From the NCBI GenBank assembly GCA_951406725.2, contig OX597825.1:31372001-31436000 (forward strand): a stretch of 64,000 nucleotides of DNA, given 5' to 3'. Source of the DNA: Octopus vulgaris (Eukaryota). This document shows positions 9,760 through 58,295 of this stretch, piece after piece. A program made the position numbers and the translations under genes. The notes under the pieces were generated by a model that did no database searches, was not told the DNA's origin, and saw only the letters and a program-made list of their open reading frames with translations. Positions within the stretch are counted from its first letter, which is position 1; the number at the start of each line of letters is the position of its first letter.

Positions 9760-10105
9760 GAGGGGACAAACAATGGCAGACAAAGGGATTAAGTCGATTA
9801 CATCGATCCCAGTGCGTAACTGGTACTTATTTTATTGACCCCGAAAGGATGAAAGGCAAAGTCGACCTCGGCGGAAGTTGAACTCAGAACGTAACAGCAG
9901 ACGAAATACCTATTTCTTTACTACCCACAAGGGGCTAAACACAGAGGACAAACAAGGACAGACAAACGGATTAAGTCGATTATATCGACCCCAGTGTGTA
10001 ACTGGTATTTATTTAATCGACCCCGAAAGGATGGAAAGCAAAGTCGACCTCGGCGGAATTTGAACTCAGAACGTATCAGCAGACGAAATACCGCTAAGCA
10101 TTTCG
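9760..10105 (-). mobile_element. Two tandem SINE family B copies
   Basis: GGATTAAGTCGATTA...GTCGACCTCGGCGGAA.TTGAACTCAGAACGTA.CAGCAGACGAAATACC occurs twice in tandem. Confidence 0.85.
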
Positions 10106-12548: not shown

Positions 12549-12759
12549 AGAAGCCTGTCGTGTATATGTATATATATATATATATACATATACACGACAG
12601 GCTTCTTTCAGTTTCCGTCTACCAAATCCACTCACAAGGCTTTGGTCGGCCCGAGGCTATGGTAGAAGACACTTGCCCAAAGTGCCACGCGGTAGGACTG
12701 AACCCGGAGCCATGTGGTTGGTAAGCAAGCTACTTACCACACAGCCACTCCTGCGCCTA
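12303..12759 (-). mobile_element. SINE family A, full length
   Basis: Colinear with the copy at 34084-34485. Confidence 0.88.
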
Positions 12760-17529: not shown

Positions 17530-17625
<96 letters not shown>

Positions 17626-17660
17626 ATGTATGTATGTATGTATGTATGTATGTGTGTGTG

Positions 17661-17752
<92 letters not shown>

Positions 17753-17882
17753 TATATTGAGGGTACTACTATTCGTAGATACCAACACGCTAAGAGGGAC
17801 CAATGCGGTCAAAACTACTAAAAATAAACAAAATTTTACCGAATGCAAAACTTCAAAACACATCATTTTAAAAAAGAATTCA

Positions 17883-17947
17883 GTTACATATCACATGTGA
17901 TTTCGCATTTAAATGCAGAATATGCATTTTATGTTCATCAGTGCAAC
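17883..17947 (-). ncRNA. Type I hammerhead ribozyme motif (copy 1)
   Basis: GTTGCA-CTGATGA-aCAT..ATGc-GAAA-TCACATGTGA-TA-TGTAAC. Confidence 0.88.
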
Positions 17948-18381
17948 AAACTCAAGAAATATAAGAGAAAAACATAACATTACAAGCTCGATAGCCAACC
18001 GTAGAATTCGTCGTAGCATGTCCGAATGTTTATCTTTACATATCTATGCAAATGGCGGGCTTATTCGCAATGCATTTCGGTAACAAATTGTCTATTCGGA
18101 ATAAAAATTCAGTATTGAACCATTCCGGTGAAAAATATAAATTAACAATTGAGGATAAAATCTTTAAAAGAAATTATCAGTAGTCAGCGTGAAAAACCTC
18201 GTAAGAGAAAAAATCCGTAAATTCTTCCTCTTTGAAAATATTCATTTATATTATATTGAGGGTACTACTATTCGTAGATACCAACACGCTAAGAGGGACC
18301 AATGCGGTCAAAACTACTAAAAATAAACAAAATTTTACCGAATGCAAAACTTCAAAACACATCATTTTAAAAAAGAATTCA

Positions 18382-18446
18382 GTTACATATCACATGTGAT
18401 TTCGCATTTAAATGCAGAATATGCATTTTATGTTCATCAGTGCAAC
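18382..18446 (-). ncRNA. Type I hammerhead ribozyme motif (copy 2)
   Basis: Same sequence as copy 1, 499 nt away. Confidence 0.88.
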
Positions 18447-18458
18447 AAACTCAAGTTT

Positions 18459-18504
18459 GTTGCACTGATGAACATAAAATGCGAAATCACATGTGATATG
18501 TAAC
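18459..18504 (+). ncRNA. Type I hammerhead ribozyme motif (inverted copy 3, short stem II)
   Basis: GTTGCA-CTGATGA-ACATAAAATGC-GAAA-TCACATGTGA-TA-TGTAAC. Confidence 0.85.
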
Positions 18505-18738
18505 TGAATTCTTTTTTAAAATGATGTGTTTTGAAGTTTTGCATTCGGTAAAATTTTGTTTATTTTTAGTAGTTTTGACCGCATTGGTCCCTCTTAGCGT
18601 GTTGGTATCTACGAATAGTAGTACCCTCAATATAATATAAATGAATATTTTCAAAGAGGAAGAATTTACGGATTTTTCTCTTACGAGGTTTTCACGCTGA
18701 CTACTGATAATTTTTTTTAAAGATTTTATCCTCAATTG

Positions 18739-18787
<49 letters not shown>

Positions 18788-27825: not shown

Positions 27826-27976
27826 TAATAATAATAACAATAATAATAGTAATAATAGACAAAGCAAAATCCCAACAAAATCCCAAAGACTACTAAATAG
27901 ACAGTATTTACACTGGAAAATGTGTAAACTCCACAAAATCAGGACTCCTACTTACTGGCATGGACATCATTTTGAG

Positions 27977-28335
27977 CCTTTAGTCGAGCAAATCGACCCC
28001 GGGACTTATTCTTTGTAAGTCTAGTACTTATTCTATCGGTCTGTTTTGCCGAACCGCTAAGTTACGGAGACGTAAGCACACCAGCATCGGTTGTCAAGCG
28101 ATGTTGGGGGGACAAACACAGACACACAAATATATACACACACACATATATATATATACATACAAATATACGACGGGCTTCTTTCAGTTTCCGTCTACCA
28201 AATCCACTCACAAGGCTTTGGTCGGCCCGAGGCTATAGTAGAAGACATTTGCCCAACGTGCCACGCAGTGGGACTGAACCCTGAACCATGTGGTTGGTAA
28301 GCAAGCTACTTACCACACAGCCACTCCTACGCCTA
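27977..28335 (-). mobile_element. SINE family A
   Basis: Matches the other family A copies. Confidence 0.85.
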
Positions 28336-34083: not shown

Positions 34084-34485
34084 CAAGGAGTGGCTGTGTG
34101 GTAAGTAGCTTGCCTACCAACCACATGGTTCTGGGTTCGGTCCCACTGCGTGGCATCTTGGGCAAGTGTCTTCTGCTATAGCCTCGGGCCGACCAAAGCC
34201 TTGTGAGTGGATTTGGTAGACGGAAACTGAAAGAAGCCTGTCGTATATATGTATATATATATAAGTGTATGTGTTTGTGTGTCTGTGTTTGTTCCCCTAG
34301 CATTGCTTGACAACCGATGCTGGTGTGTTTACGTCCCCGTCACTTAGCGGTTCGGCAAAAGAGACCGATAGAATAAGTACTGGGCTTACAAAGAATAAGT
34401 CCCGGGGTCGATTTGCTCGACTAAAGGCGGTGCTCCAGCATGGCCGCAGTCATATGACTGAAACAAGTAAAAAGAGAAAAAGAGA
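34084..34485 (+). mobile_element. SINE family A, full length
   Basis: A/B boxes at about 34090-34145; tail GGTGCTCCAGCATGGCCGCAGTC...AAGTAAAAAGAG. Confidence 0.88.
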
Positions 34486-37825: not shown

Positions 37826-37873
<48 letters not shown>

Positions 37874-37912
37874 TAAAACATGGAGTTAACGCAGGTGTAA
37901 ACAAATATTTTT

Positions 37913-37998
37913 ACTTTCGACACATGTTTCGAAAATTCCACTGATACTATTCAAAAGAATAAATGGTATAAACAATGCAATCTTCTCTTCGGGAAAGT
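37913..37998 (-). ncRNA. Type I hammerhead motif of the PLE (U4C core variant)
   Basis: ACTTTC-CCGAAGA-GAAGATT...AATTTTC-GAAA-CATGTG-TC-GAAAGT, with a 6-bp stem I and a 7-bp stem II. Confidence 0.8.
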
Positions 37999-38199
37999 GA
38001 AAAAAACAAAACTCGTCAATACGACATTTTAGCAAAAAATGATGGATTTGTATAGCGATAGACAGAACGCTATTAATATTGTTTAAAAAAAAATTATATG
38101 ATATAACGTCATAAGTAGCTAACAGAAAGAGTAGGGATATTAATAATGAATGTTAAATATAAAGGAAATTAAAGTTTAAATTATATATAATGATAGAGA

Positions 38200-40526
38200 C
38201 TACTTATATGAACTAAATGTATGTTTTTGCCAATGCTTACATCTGTATGCTCGCTCTATAACCCTGTTTACTAGAGTATTTTTAGAAAAAATAATAAAAA
38301 ATAGCTCAGAATTGCAGAGAAGACAGAATTTCTTGCCTTTGTCATATGGTATTGAAATTGAGAGGATCAACCATTCTAAATGAAATTGTTCATTGTGGTC
38401 TTTTAAATCCCAAATCAGTTTGCTGAGACCGGTACTATTCCGTTTATTTCTATCCCTAAATGTTGAGTAATGGATAGAAATTCTTTTAGATAACTCTAAC
38501 GATGTGCTTCCAATGTAAAATCGTACTTTATTACGAGTACTGATTATACACTGGTATATAGAATTTTTAATCTTAGAGTTACTTGACATAAATTTAATTC
38601 TATTGGAATTGACTTCAGATACAATAACCTTGTTATTAATATTTCTAGAGGGTTGGATGGTATTAGCTAAATTAATGTTAGTATTAGTAAATGTATTAAT
38701 ATTTAACAGTTTGCTATTATGAGAAGATATAATTTGCAAGAGATTTTTTGTGTTTGAAAAACCTATCCTAACCTTATGTGAATTAATTATAGAGTAATAT
38801 CTAGAATTGTTTGGAAAATTCCTAGCAATAGCTTGACGAAACAGCAGTGGGAGATTAGATTTAATTTGTCTCCCGTAAGGAATTATTAACCAAATATTTT
38901 TACTAGTATTCATAGCGTAATTACTTTTGAAGGTGTTATATTTACTTTTAGATCGATAATAGGGGATTAAATAAGGGTTATCTGCCTTCATTCGCTTTGT
39001 ATCGGTGCGTAAGTTATGTTTGTTATCAATAATTCTTTTACGACTAGAAATCTTATCTACATTATTGAATTTACAATTAGACTGAGCAGAATCAATGTAG
39101 AAAATTTTTTGTGTATAACCTGCTTTGCTTAAGGCAGAGTTATAGAATTCAGCGTTATTATTGAAAATATCAACATTAGCAGATAATTTAGATAATCTAA
39201 ATGAAATATTCTTAACCAAGTTCTTAGTAATTGCTCCAGGATGATTACTAAATTTGCTAATGTACTTAAGATTGGTCAACGGTTTATGATATGGGAAGTA
39301 AGAGTCACTGTGTAAATTAAGCGTAATATCTAAAAAGTTGACCTTCGTCAGATCGTCATCAAAAACGATTTTTAAGCCCATTCTACTGAAAAAGTTAACT
39401 AAACTATTCTTAACTTTCTGTACCTTTTGGTTGGAAACATTTTGGAGGTAAAGTAAACAATCATCACGATATAGACCTCCATAAATGTTAGGGAACTCTT
39501 CAGCCATTTCAAAAAGAATATATATACAGACCAAATCAGCTATCTGTGCTAAATCAGAACTTCCCATTGTTATATCGAAACTATCTGGTGTGTCTTTACG
39601 GACCCACAACTTATCATCAAATTTAATAATAGATCTTCTGGCTGCCAACACAACATTAATTTCTTCTCGGGTGAGACCAGCTTTGTTATGAGCAAGCCAA
39701 AGTGCCTTATTAAGTACTATTGGATTAATAGATGAATAAAAATTGGAAATATCAAACTGGATAAACTTTGTACTCACCTTACTGTTAATAGACCTAAACC
39801 AGTCAACTACTTCAAATGAATTAGTCCATAAACTAGTTTTAATGTTTTGATTAAATTAGGAATATATTTATCTATTATATTTTTACTAAGGATACCGATA
39901 TCAGAGCTAGAAGGGCAGATAAGCCTTAATGATGGGTTAGTAAAAAAATTTGGTTTGTGATCCTTCAAAATGAACTGAGGTTGCTTAGGAACAAGTGGTT
40001 CTGTCTTCATTTGTAGGTTATATTTCTCCATGATTTTCATAGCCTCAATGTTGGCTTTCTTAAGTATTCTTTTATCAGCAATGTTATACTTTTTCTGAAT
40101 TTCTTTTTTAAGTAATTCCAAATAATAGTCTTTATAAAGTTTGTACAGATTTCCAGTCTTATCAGATTGAACCAACATAGTATCCATAGAATTGATTTCT
40201 TTGGTGATGTTGCGAAGATACCTCAGATGTTCATTTCTTAGTGGTGATCATTGAAATTTAACATTTCTCACAATGGACCAGAGATCATCTTCAAATTGCT
40301 TCAATCTTGGGTTAGGCGGCGGACTATTTTTAGATTTAAATAACTTGTTGAACTCAGATGCTTTATCATTAGTGTGTTGTTGAGTGTAATTTTTGTCAAA
40401 GAAAAAGGTAAGCCATCTTATTCGGTTGATGAATGAATTAATCTTATTGACAAGTTGTTTAAGGAAAACATTCTTAGGTGGAATAGGAATGTCTTTAAGA
40501 GATGCGTTAATATTCAATAACTCCAT
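38200..40526 (-). pseudogene. PLE polyprotein (reverse transcriptase + C-terminal GIY-YIG endonuclease), about 775 aa, one in-frame TGA and one frameshift
   Basis: SLKDIPIP..RIRW N-terminus; SDKTGNLY, LKDHKPNF, RLICP, FDISNFYSSI, ITMGS, YRDD, VNFLDI; SIYQC..FYIG..KR..H; terminal CLLC..E..N..CKH. TGA at 40248-40250 is in frame with the next ORF; frameshift at about 39836. Confidence 0.93.
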
Positions 40527-40759
40527 ATGCTGTAACTATTCAGTTAGCAGGTTATTAATAAACCTGATTAAAGTATTATAAATAGATGAGTGTATTTTTA
40601 CCTTGTTAACAATTAACACGGAAAAATAAATAAATAGTTACCAGGGCAGCAAAAATCTCACAAGTAAAGGTGTTGTAACTCCTTGTATATAAAGGTAGAA
40701 ACTTCGTATTTACGTTGAATATTTGAATATGAATAAAAAATGGAGTTAACGCAGGTGTA

Positions 40760-40825
<66 letters not shown>

Positions 40826-41886
40826 TTTATATATGAAGGGATTCTTTCGGTTTCTATCTACCAAATCGACTCAGAAGGCTTTGGTGTGTCCGGGACTATA
40901 GTGGAAGACACTTGCCTAAGATACTACTCATTGGCACTGAACCCGGAATCATGTGGTTGGAAAGCAAACATTTTACCACACAGTCACGCTTGGAAGAATA
41001 TTTTACGAGATGTCCAGCTGAACGATTTAAGAGGAAGACATGCAATGAAGGAAGAAAAATGCAATGTACTTGGCTGAGTGTAGGAGTAATAAGTGCAATA
41101 TCATAAAAATTAAAATAGATATGGAAATATTAGGATTTTTTTATAGTGACGATTGATAAATTGAGAGTATTAAGTTTTCATCTGTTTGTATGACTGTGTA
41201 TACACATGTGTGTATGTATAATTTCATACGTGTGGGCAACTTCTAGATAATATATATCCTCTCAATGGATTTGTAAGTAATTTAGTATGTTGTGGCTGAC
41301 AGAAAAGTATAAAAACTGGGGAAAGATGTGTTATAGTAAAAAGTAAATAAAGAGCTGAGAGTGCCCGCTAAAATAAAAAAAAATTATGAATGTGAGTGCT
41401 GGGATTAGCAAATTATCATTGACGTCATGCATTAGGGAACGGAGTTTTATATTGGTATCAAATATCTCTTTTTGCTCATTTTATGAGACGGGGAATGCAT
41501 TATCGGAACACTCACTAGTCTACCGACAACAAATCCGGAACACCAATGTTCACCAAATTCCATTCGGCGAACATACAAAGATGTGGTCAGAAAATGTTTC
41601 TAATTTTTCCTTTCCACAAACTACACAAAAAATAAGGATACAATCTATATAAGATTTTACCGAGTAGCCAGCGTGTAAAACCAGTTTTACATATAAAGGA
41701 GAAAATTATATATTTTGTATTAATTTTTTTCCTTAATTGGTTTTACACGCTGGCAACTCGATAAAATCTTATATAGATTTTATCTTTATATTTATATATA
41801 TACATATATAGACACATATATATATACATATATATATACATAAATATGTATATATACGTATATATACATACATATATGCATACATA

Positions 41887-41942
<56 letters not shown>

Positions 41943-42177
41943 CATATATACACACATATATACACATATTTAGACAATATATATACATATATATATACAA
42001 AGATATACATGTACATTCATATATATTTACATATATATATATATATATATACATACATACATACATACATACATACATACATACATACATACATACATAC
42101 ATACATACATACATACATACATACATAGGGAAACTATTAAAAGTGAAAAAATAAAAGTGAAACAATACAAAAAATGA

Positions 42178-42501
42178 AACTATTTATAACTGTTACTCCG
42201 TCGAAGGTTGTATATATACATATATTTTCCGAGCACACAATCTTAGATGAAGTCACTTGCTATGCAAGTACATCTCTCTAAATAGAAGGATTATATATCT
42301 ATGAAATGTTCTATTGTTTTAACTGAAATGAAAATAAAACTTTGTATTGACATTACCAGCCTTCGCATATATATAGTATTGGTTTTACTCGCTGGCAACT
42401 CGATAAAATCTTTATATTTATATATATACATATATAGACATATATATATATACATAAATATGTATATATACGTATATATACATACATATATGCATACATA
42501 A

Positions 42502-42532
<31 letters not shown>

Positions 42533-42611
42533 CACACATATATATACACATATATAGACAATATATATACATTTATATATAGAAAGATATACATGTACAT
42601 TCATATATATT

Positions 42612-42648
<37 letters not shown>

Positions 42649-43070
42649 CAAAGTTGAGTTGTGGGGTATCGCACGAGTGGAATTATATACGAAAGAAGGT
42701 TTGAAAATGCAATTTAAAAGATGTTTATTTACTTAACCGGTTTCACTCTTTGGAAAAAGATTGTCAAAAGTAACATAGAATATTATGAATTCAAAAAAAA
42801 TTTACATAATTGCCACATTACATGTATATATACAGCCTTTGGTAACAGGGACATGTTAAGGACATTACAACTATTTATAACTGTTACTCCGTCGAAGGTT
42901 GTATATATACATATATTTTCCGAGCACACAATCTCAGATGAAGTCACTTGCTATCCAAGTACATCTCTCTAAATAGAAGGATTATATATCTATGAAATGT
43001 TCTATTGTTTTAACTGAAATGAAAATAAAACTTCGTATTGACATTACCAGCCTTCGCATATATATAGTAT
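42178..43070. repeat. Local direct duplications around a hammerhead-bearing element
   Basis: 42178-42378 is repeated at about 42868-43070; about 41737-42040 is repeated at about 42379-42630. Confidence 0.8.
42729..42773 (-). ncRNA. Minimal hammerhead motif, U3-A8 core variant
   Basis: TTACTT-TTGACAA-TCTTT(ttcc)AAAGA-gt-GAAA-CCGG-TT-AAGTAA. Confidence 0.7.
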
Positions 43071-55850: not shown

Positions 55851-58195
55851 TTACCATCGCAACCACCATTTCCGCTCCAATCAACACTATTACTATCATC
55901 ACCACCACCACCACCACCACCACCACCGCCGCCGCCACCACCACACATCGATATACATACGTGCACAAGCATGCAAACCTGCATACACACACACACACAC
56001 ACACAACCACACATACCTACATAGATACATCCAGACGCACCAGCACACATAAACACAGATATACATATACACACCTGAACACATACGCAGTCATTCACAT
56101 AGTCACAACATACACTATAGTGCACGCGTACACACATACACACACACACAAACTTACAAAAATGTACAAGTATCCTGTATCACACACACAGAGACAATCA
56201 TATCTCGTCCCCACCACACACACACGCACATATCTTGTCCACACACACACACACACACACACCACACACATGCTCACGTACACAATCACACATATACACA
56301 CTCACACGTCTTTCTTTACGTGGACACCGCCATTACCACTACATCCATCAGGATAAACTGCGGTTCAAGAATTTGGATCTGGAGATCTCCATTTCCAGCG
56401 ACTTCAATGACCACCTCCAAGTGGTGTCGGGCATCAACGAAGATCCCTTGACTAAAACAAGACGACCAAAGTTTTTTTTTCCAAGGTCTGGGGTCTCCCG
56501 CTCCTAAGCCCTAAACCATCACCTAATCACCTTTACCCGTCTTGTTGCTTAACAACAATAATCAGGATAAACTTACAACAACAGCAACAGCAACAACAGT
56601 GACCAACCCTCTACGGCGAAATGGTGAAGCAGTCAGAGCATCGGACGAAATGCCTCTCCATATTTATCCTGGCTCTCTTGTTCTGAGTTTAAATACCACC
56701 GAGGTCAGACTTGCCCTTCATCTTTCCAGGGTTAATAAATAAAGTGTGCGTTTGAGATAGTCGACTGGCGAATTCATAAGAGCCTTGGACAGGATACTCA
56801 GCAGCATTCCTTCCTACTCTTTACGCTCCGATTTTAAATCCCGTCCTTGGTTGATAGATCAGATCCAATGCGCAGTTGAACACCACCAGCTGTCACTTTG
56901 GTGTCTTAACTCAAAGCTTTCGGGTCATGTCTCCAATTTGAGGATATTTTCCTCTTTCTGAATCCTTGCTGACAAAGGAGAAATAAATATCTCCAAAAAG
57001 CTCGATCTCACCCTGTGTCTTTAAACGGAAGGACACAGGAGAATGCTGTTAGCGGTAGATAACCCTTAAATGACCGGTTAGCTTAGGTTTGCAATGATTT
57101 ACTTCATGTCTACTTCTATATCGATTCGCCTCTGGTTCAATAATAACAATAATTCTTTCTACTGACGATACAAAGACTGAAAATTTCGGAGAGGGAATAA
57201 GTCGATTCCCTCGACTCCAGTATCTGAATGGTACTTGTTTTATTGAATGCGAAGGGATGGAAGGCAAAATCGACCTCAGCATGAGAACGGACGAAATGCC
57301 GCTAAGCATTTTAACCGGCGTGCTAACGATTCTGCCAGCTCGCCCCACGATGCGACTAGTGTCTACCCACGGTCGCTCAACATGCTGGAAATAGCAGCCG
57401 AACCCCTTACGACTTTCCCTACTTTCGATGTCAATAAACAAATGTACACATCCAAAGGGGGAATCAACGGGATTGTTAGGGCCTGGTGTGAGATTCCCAC
57501 GCTATTTTACATTATGAGTTCTTGAATCGCAAGCTTAATACGTCCCCTACCTCCAGTTTAACAGCAACACCCTGGTAACTTAGCTCCTTTTAGCGGGGTT
57601 AAAGACAGCTTCCTTCCGTCGCCATTTTTGAAAAGCGTTGAAAATAAAGATTCATAGACAATGTTCTTCCCTTTCTGATTAAATGGGAATAAAAACAAAA
57701 TTGTACCACTTTATATTGATGTTGCTTCTTGTCTCAACACAAGGCTTGAAATTGAGAGAAGGGGTTCAGCTGATAACATCGACTCCAGTATTTGACAGGC
57801 ACTTATTTTAACGGCACCCGAAATGATTAAAAGCTGAGTCGACTTCGTTGGTATTTGAAACCGGTCCATAAAGAACCAGATGAATGAAATACCGCTGAAT
57901 GTTTTTGTCCGGCAAGCAAACAATTCTGCTACTACGCTGTCATTGTTTTGACGTTATATTAAATACACAGAAGGCGGCAAATTGACAGACTCGTTGACAT
58001 TCTGGACGAAATGCTTAGCGGCGTTTCTTCTGACTTTACGATCTGGGTTCAAACACACCCATGTCTTTGACTTTGGCTTCCCTTCTCTCGGGGTCAATAA
58101 AATAAGTACCAGTCGAACTATGGGTTCGATGTAATCGACTGACCCCCATCCCTAAAAAGTTTTGTGCTAAAATTTGAAACCAATATATTAACTAC

Positions 58196-58295
58196 CGATA
58201 GTACATATACTGAAATTGGGATGATACAGAGAAGATTAGCATGACATCTGCACAAGAATGACACGGGAATTCATGCAGCAATCCATATTTTTTTT
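58196..58295 (+). pseudogene. U6: U6 snRNA retrocopy (5' end eroded)
   Basis: ACATATACTgAAATTGGgAtGATACAGAGAAGATTAGCATG...ATGACACG..AATTC.TG.AGC..TCCATATTTTT is colinear with U6 (ACAGAGA box, AGC triad), with many substitutions. Confidence 0.92.

Follow-up and report, generated by a model that had tools for sequence, protein, structure and literature searches.

We propose that positions 17747-18743 of the 64,000-nt stretch of Octopus vulgaris DNA analysed here (the window) are the product of a single recent insertion, in which a non-coding 499-nt repeat of high abundance, bearing a type I hammerhead motif, was likely written into a (TA)n microsatellite by the reverse transcriptase (RT) and GIY-YIG endonuclease of a Penelope-like element (PLE), and that this particular copy is predicted to be a dead end and not a source of monomers. 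We consider this reading as a whole probable. It is built on the observed architecture of the locus, the identity of its arms, the abundance of the family, a common end at (TA)n and the lack of an ORF, and it is from these that we infer the mechanism.

Architecture of the proposed insertion

The repeat unit lies on the minus strand and is present as 1.42 tandem copies plus a third, inverted copy, in the overall order (TA)n, 1.42 units, inverted 0.6 unit, (TA)n. The left flank (17534..17746) is a compound microsatellite that ends in (TA)n and is the likely insertion target. It is followed by a partial second unit (17747..17956, minus strand; unit positions 1-210), which stops 9 nt past the motif CCTCAAT, where the (TA)n begins, and by one full 499-nt unit of 31% GC (17957..18455, minus strand). 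The partial unit is identical to 18246-18455 (0 differences in 210), a direct repeat that the earlier note had rightly called identical but measured at 209 bp instead of 210. The right flank (18742..18784) consists of (TA)n and then unique sequence; since (TA)n stands on both sides of the element, a target-site duplication is unreadable.

The third copy (18456..18743, plus strand) is inverted and 5'-truncated, covers unit positions 7-315 and carries hammerhead C (core 18465-18471). It is identical at 287 of 288 aligned bases, with gaps of 19, 1 and 1 nt, the two single-nucleotide gaps falling in homopolymers. The 19-nt deletion in this arm lies between two AAATGC repeats and removes the stem II hairpin, and the outer end of the arm is the end common to the family, abutting (TA)n. 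The element had previously been delimited as 17748..18455, an extent that captured a real tandem but missed both the inverted copy at 18456-18743 and the (TA)n flanks.

The two arms meet head to head where hammerhead stem I has its 5' edge, in a fold-back junction (18447..18459) whose loop is 4 nt long (18451-18454). Deletions flanking hairpins arise by slippage. We consider it more likely that the inverted arm arose by fold-back copying of the cDNA than by a second, independent priming, because the arms start within 6 nt of each other, both carry a minority allele at unit position 271, and the listed variants of the family do not include the hairpin-skipping deletion of 19 nt. That the arm stops at the family end, on the other hand, would be better explained by two independent primings. 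The fold-back junction of this locus is not among the joints seen in the family contigs described below, which contain one other strand-switch joint, at different breakpoints.

Both outer ends lie 6-9 nt past CCTCAAT, a motif that occurs just twice in the unit, each time downstream of a predicted hairpin. A conserved motif, the hairpin, CCTCAAT and the shared end together form the 3'-terminal region of the family as defined by its contigs (18135..18198, minus strand), which is a candidate site for the start of reverse transcription. The partial tandem, the inverted and 5'-truncated head, the microsatellite target and the fixed 3' end are those of a PLE insertion: PLEs integrate into microsatellites as partial tandems whose 5' end often carries a 5'-truncated copy in inverse orientation, and the Hydra and Naiad clades prefer (TA)n (PMC8557442). 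In one respect the insertion departs from this pattern. Its outer ends, at unit positions 210 and about 315, are some 105 nt apart, whereas a PLE tail between the ends is usually 30-40 nt long.

The absence of coding capacity, as claimed earlier, holds. Stop-to-stop frames wholly within 17748-18455 reach 64 aa at most, a comparison of the unit with 26 PLE-like proteins gave a best E value of 0.24 and thus no ORF remnant, and the unit contains no ORF for RT plus GIY-YIG endonuclease of the kind that marks an autonomous endonuclease-bearing (EN+) PLE. No tRNA was found in the window. A sigma-70 promoter scan, which gave no more than chance level (7 matches against 4.8 ± 1.9), was set aside, this being a bacterial model unsuited to a eukaryote.

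Hammerhead motifs and their predicted folding

On the minus strand, two identical hammerheads have cores (CUGAUGA...GAAA...UA) that begin at 18440 and at 17941, a spacing of 499 nt in agreement with the earlier note. Hammerhead A (18375..18452, minus strand) has its predicted cut between 18388 and 18387, and hammerhead B (17876..17953, minus strand; core 17941-17935), of type I, has its putative cut between 17889 and 17888. Cleavage at both would be required to yield the predicted cut-to-cut monomer of 499 nt (17889..18387, minus strand). When the unit is numbered from 18455 as position 1, stem I is formed by positions 10-15 paired with 69-74 (6 bp), with 5 bp more past a small internal loop; the core CUGAUGA occupies 16-22 and GAAA 53-56. 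Stem II (24-51) consists of 3 bp, an internal loop, 7 bp and a 5-nt loop and is longer than canonical. Stem III (56-67) is a 12-nt palindrome when the A15.1-U16.1 pair is counted, two nucleotides more than first reported, within which hammerhead B has a 4-bp stem III, and the predicted cut follows the triplet AUA at 68. Decimal positions such as these belong to the numbering scheme used for hammerheads.

The core and stems of a type I hammerhead are thus present (CUGANGA, GAAA, NUH, stems I-III, with stem I open). The pair that closes stem II (10.1-11.1; unit positions 23 and 52) is A·C in all three copies in the window, whereas G10.1-C11.1 is conserved in canonical hammerheads (PMC4209133); the window copies therefore lack the expected R-Y pair, which part of the family does have. 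The term 'canonical' applied to these motifs earlier is accordingly right for the type I core and stems and wrong for the A·C closure, the long stem II and the lack of an Rfam match: no hammerhead family of Rfam was found at the gathering score or at E values up to 10, and the miRNA families that Rfam did return were discounted as a product of the palindrome. A type I descriptor that tolerates the A·C mismatch, and whose thresholds were chosen after the motif had been seen and not blind, matched exactly three times in the 64-kb window on both strands, and never in 20,000 dinucleotide shuffles of the unit or in 60 shuffles of the window. The hammerhead motif is not a product of chance.

Folding predictions were made for the A·C allele only and are model-based. 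The 85-nt motif alone is predicted to prefer an inactive fold (-15.0 against -12.8 kcal/mol) with the core bound to the 5' strand of stem III (P 0.71) and stem III itself rarely formed (P 0.12); the best fold of the circular monomer contains this pairing of core and stem III too. Folded together without constraints, two 85-nt copies are predicted to adopt a double hammerhead as their best structure (-44.4 kcal/mol, compared with 2 x -15.0 for single copies). In silico, folding supports activation as a dimer, and with it the earlier suggestion that stem III pairs between the two copies. Hammerheads that depend on dimers are known to cleave multimers while leaving circles intact (PMC4209133).

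The same models bear on what the locus itself could do. In nascent-chain snapshots the probability of hammerhead A stem I falls from 0.50 when the transcript starts at 18455 to 0.07 at 18462 and 0.00 from 18466 on, so that any start at least 11 nt upstream is predicted to lose this stem completely; hammerhead C on the plus strand behaves alike. In equilibrium folding of the full length, which does not discriminate, hammerhead A has a probability of about 0 whether or not the inverted arm is included, and the predicted blocking by the arm is therefore drawn from the nascent-chain snapshots. The fold-back of about 290 bp is thus predicted to block the upstream hammerhead A in read-through RNA, and for this reason the locus is likely a product of the family and not its source.

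This prediction runs against the view that the locus is an active source, whose minus-strand transcript is cut at both hammerheads to release a 499-nt circle. Two identical intact cores at unit spacing, a double hammerhead as the predicted best fold of two isolated motifs, and several contigs of one sequencing run (X7, guessed to be RNA) that are identical to the window over 72-171 nt would all fit such a source. Its transcript would have to start within about 10 nt of 18455, however, because in transcripts that begin further up hammerhead A is predicted to pair with the inverted arm; transcription from a promoter inside the unit would include hammerhead B alone, and stem II closes with A·C in place of the conserved G10.1-C11.1 (PMC4209133). 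We therefore consider an active source unlikely, and the release of a monomer from a minus-strand transcript of this locus, as had been proposed, is probably wrong, with stem I predicted to drop from 0.50 to 0.00. The first reading was right at the level of the family and probably wrong for the locus.

A family of repeats in public sequencing runs

The dead-end copy proposed here belongs to an abundant family. Twenty of the 24 public runs listed, from 12 studies and under 8 organism labels, contain the stretch or part of it, and 16 runs contain half or more of its words. Four runs were compared as contigs with the permuted monomer 17748-18246: X1 and X3 are DNA runs, X20 is the only one on record as RNA (oligo-dT), and RNA is a guess for X7. 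Contigs that match the unit number 1214 in X1, 788 in X3, 76 in X7 and 1 in X20, with identities from 99% down to under 90%, and all 30 bins of the unit are covered in X1, X3 and X7. The family is multicopy, contig depth not being equal to copy number. Among the runs guessed to be RNA, seven contain 0.39-0.55 of the words and four next to none; X20 contributed a single contig of 250 nt at a depth of 2.2, which runs across an intact cleavage site. The unit pattern was found in no viral contigs, metagenome contigs or prokaryote genomes, as expected for an animal repeat.

The ends of the contigs are informative. At 18135, the outer end of the inverted copy, 13 X3 contigs and 5 X7 contigs have loose ends that consist of (AT)n; the family therefore has a common 3' end at a (TA)n target. 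This common end, the PLE-type architecture and the abundance of the family together support the assignment made in the earlier note to a retrozyme-like, PLE-mobilised class. The junction from the unit end to the hammerhead is bridged by 2 of the 25 records listed (record 4 of X1 and record 9 of X20, under a 31-letter rule). Joints that go back 499 were rejected as evidence for longer arrays or circles, since that continuity is already contained in the full unit.

Sequence variation was found at 20 places in the 499 nt. The base at 17934 that gives G10.1-C11.1 makes up 54% of the summed contig depth in X1, 16% in X3 and 20% in X7, 6 X3 contigs have a variant in the loop of stem III that breaks the palindrome, and the base at 18121 is nearly private to the locus (about 44 of a depth of 119,695 in X1). 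Conservation of the catalytic core is not significant, with 0 listed variants (>4%) in about 40 core and stem positions where about 1.6 are expected. In X1 the summed contig depth over the hammerhead (17884-17951) is roughly 10-20 times below that of its flanks; the dip is far shallower in X3 and absent from X7, and it may reflect subfamilies with a different stem II or an effect of the tool. Depth also drops at 18224-18246, where diverged variants end, and contig depth cannot rank parts of the unit.

These contigs also speak to the idea that an autonomous PLE has the unit as its pseudo-LTR or terminal region, the copy then being truncated or internally deleted and not a member of an independent non-autonomous family. 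The architecture is that of PLEs, Xenopus retrozymes resemble PLE pLTRs (bioRxiv 10.64898/2026.07.22.740005), and there are 137 loose-end rows beyond those listed. The path of 499 nt closes on itself, however, with contigs running from the unit end into the hammerhead, and next to none continue into unlike sequence (a share of 0 in X1, 0 in X3, 0.03 in X7 and 0 in X20); all 18 of the loose ends listed look like homologous variants or (AT)n, with no attached ORF seen. Together with the lack of an ORF remnant in the unit, this makes a terminal region quite unlikely, and we retain an independent non-autonomous family.

An origin at the level of DNA, in which a satellite-like unit was spread by recombination and the inverted arm was added later by a replication template switch resolved in self-complementary (TA)n, is very unlikely in our judgement. 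In its favour, slippage on single-stranded DNA typically leaves a fold-back with a 4-nt loop and a hairpin-spanning deletion, the window has 83 (TA)n tracts that together make up 3.7% of its length, and hammerhead satellites of about 500 bp are known (pDo500, PMC2837043). Against this, the inverted arm ends where 18 other contigs in two runs end, the copy is dispersed without an array, and the arms are near-identical, as a single event would give. As for an artefact of assembly or of long reads, a perfect 210-bp repeat with a palindromic centre, and a fold-back junction that was not recovered among the family contigs, are what a collapsed repeat or hairpin chimera would leave; but the inverted arm is marked by a 19-nt deletion and a substitution of its own, it leaves the mirror path exactly at the family end to enter (TA)n and then unique sequence, and the unit-to-unit junction is confirmed by the bridging records, so that we regard an artefact as most improbable. 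That the motif is a box C/D snoRNA (UGAUGA ... CUGA) is scarcely credible, the weak Rfam match to SNORD27 (17884-17946 and 18383-18445; 19 bits, E 3.9) being far under the gathering score of 52, with no terminal stem beside the boxes and with GAAA, stem III, UH and stem I all fitting a hammerhead.

A model for mobilisation and the partner question

We propose the following model for the insertion of a 499-nt hammerhead repeat by PLE enzymes. The family likely spreads through self-cut RNA circles, cleavage and circles being expected by analogy with animal retrozymes. Multimeric transcripts from other loci would fold two motifs into a double hammerhead via the 12-nt palindrome and be cut into monomers of about 499 nt, which a host ligase would close into circles, and the lone motif would then misfold, leaving the circle protected. 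A PLE protein would nick (TA)n, the Hydra clade being the best candidate and Naiad or Neptune possible. Reverse transcription would start inside the RNA, 140-250 nt downstream of the hammerhead and just past the hairpin and CCTCAAT. At this locus one cDNA would have run 709 nt (1.42 units) across two intact cleavage sites, so the template would have been a circle or an uncut multimer. The inverted arm may stem from the same event, by fold-back copying of the cDNA with slippage across the stem II hairpin, and the resulting hairpin of about 290 bp would trap hammerhead A in read-through RNA.

The separate steps have precedents. Retrozymes of coral, mussel and axolotl give multimers that are cut and ligated into circles (PMC7229834); against this, of nine predicted Xenopus retrozyme dimers only one cleaved in vitro (bioRxiv 10.64898/2026.07.22.740005). 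With the Poseidon PLE protein of Anolis, reverse transcription starts inside uncut RNA, downstream of the hammerhead, and both nicked strands are extended (PMC11167929).

The octopus unit has the genomic features of animal non-LTR retrozymes (PMC7229834; bioRxiv 10.64898/2026.07.22.740005): head-to-tail non-coding tandem units with one type I hammerhead each, low GC content, and abundance without LTR, PBS or PPT in a genome that also has PLEs. The likeness is one of genomic features, and circular RNA is a prediction from it. At 499 nt the unit is longer than the 170-400 nt of PMC7229834 and lies within the 51-972 bp of consensus lengths in bioRxiv 10.64898/2026.07.22.740005. It differs from these retrozymes in its long stem II, its A·C closure and a stem III of 4 bp that is nonetheless predicted to depend on a dimer, and its inverted head and (TA)n targeting with a common end are not described for animal retrozymes in the available portions of either source. 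The class is already well known, and the octopus family is a further member. No description of a cephalopod retrozyme was found in the literature searched, although the supplement of PMC7229834 may list cephalopod examples; in the giant squid, 235 loci match Rfam hammerhead_1 (PMC6962438).

With EN+ PLEs, especially the Hydra clade (PMC8557442), the insertion has in common the partial tandem, the inverted 5'-truncated copy at the 5' end, the (TA)n target and a hammerhead upstream of a fixed 3' end, but the unit has no ORF, and its hammerhead differs by eye from that of Hydra-1_Obim in the supplement of that source. The non-autonomous Chlamys PLEs, e.g. MRC1 (PMC8557442), are likewise non-autonomous, arranged head to tail with pLTRs and moved by PLEs; they differ in that most Chlamys elements lack canonical hammerheads and the non-autonomous ones have 3' sequence in common with an autonomous partner, none having been found for this unit. 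The pDo500 satellite of Dolichopoda cave crickets (PMC2837043) is also a hammerhead unit of about 500 bp with single and double hammerhead models, its multimers being processed to monomers; it is described as satellite DNA, whereas the octopus copy is a dispersed 1.42-mer with an inverted head.

A near-complete Hydra-type PLE with RT and C-terminal GIY-YIG lies in (TA)n at 37871-40764 (minus strand), 19 kb from the unit. It has a stop near 40248, a frameshift near 39810-39855, a terminal repeat of 38-46 bp and (TA)n at both sides. Its DKT, CxxC and CxH motifs and its size are those that define the Hydra clade, and by eye it is like Hydra-1_Obim. The two named proteins among its 26 homologues come from Octopus bimaculoides (66%) and O. 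sinensis (57%); these are labelled GATA- or Myb-like at the source, probably through misannotation. Pfam returned no family for its frames. Near its 3' end stands a hammerhead-like motif with a long stem II and an altered core (CCGAAGA), and relative to the predicted cut position the element starts about 13 nt after and ends about 50 nt after.

No autonomous partner was found for the unit. The nearby PLE shares with it no similarity detectable by BLASTN or TBLASTN, the two hammerheads are unrelated (p 0.91), and the PLE tail does not resemble the unit (p 0.28); a comparison of that tail with the diverged relatives (p 0.02-0.03 among seven tests) was not accepted. In the PLE supplement of PMC8557442 there was no match to five short DNA motifs, each drawn from the unit, from a variant of the family or from the nearby PLE, or to one protein motif. 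What the nearby PLE shows is that a (TA)n-targeting clade is present in this genome, and not the identity of the partner. Animal retrozymes are assumed to borrow the enzymes of PLEs. According to a 2020 review, their repeats show no motif that points to a partner (PMC7761336), and a Xenopus preprint argues for the PLE link from co-occurrence and pLTR phylogeny in frogs (bioRxiv 10.64898/2026.07.22.740005). What the octopus locus adds is a PLE integration pattern on a retrozyme (common end, (TA)n target, inverted head) with a candidate start signal, and the (TA)n-targeting clade in the same genome provides a concrete pair of template and enzyme to test.

Tentatively, we raise the further possibility that an octopus family of circular-RNA retrozymes parasitises Hydra-clade Penelope elements, that its insertions record two internal starts of reverse transcription (hairpin plus CCTCAAT) and a fold-back step, and that its hammerhead carries an off switch, stem III keeping the core paired in the monomer or circle and only dimer formation releasing it. 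If true, this would supply the recruitment signal that reviews describe as missing for animal retrozymes and make the partnership of retrozyme and PLE testable in vitro, and copies with an inverted head would seed double-stranded RNA hairpins of about 290 bp across the genome.

Several further repeats were observed in the window. Diverged matches (about 79%) to the terminal 60 nt or so of the unit occur at 41627-41784, as a head-to-head inverted pair, and at 42380-42420 (p 0.001 each); in two of the three, TA-rich sequence takes over at the corresponding position, and they possibly belong to an older family that used this end signal too. For the relative at 41627-41690, homology past these terminal nucleotides was rejected, because its score of 136 was reached by 69 of the 300 stretches in the background. 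A stretch of some 650-700 bp at ~41740-43000, with microsatellite and unique sequence included, appears by eye to be duplicated in tandem. A match to U6 snRNA at 58185-58292 (plus strand; 75.8 bits, full model, several substitutions) is probably a retroposed pseudogene. At 9764-10092 there are 1.8 tandem copies of a 182-bp unit, which presumably resembles a common octopus SINE-like repeat, and further dispersed repeats lie at 2584-2806, 12575-12752, 27976-28328 and 34086-34472.
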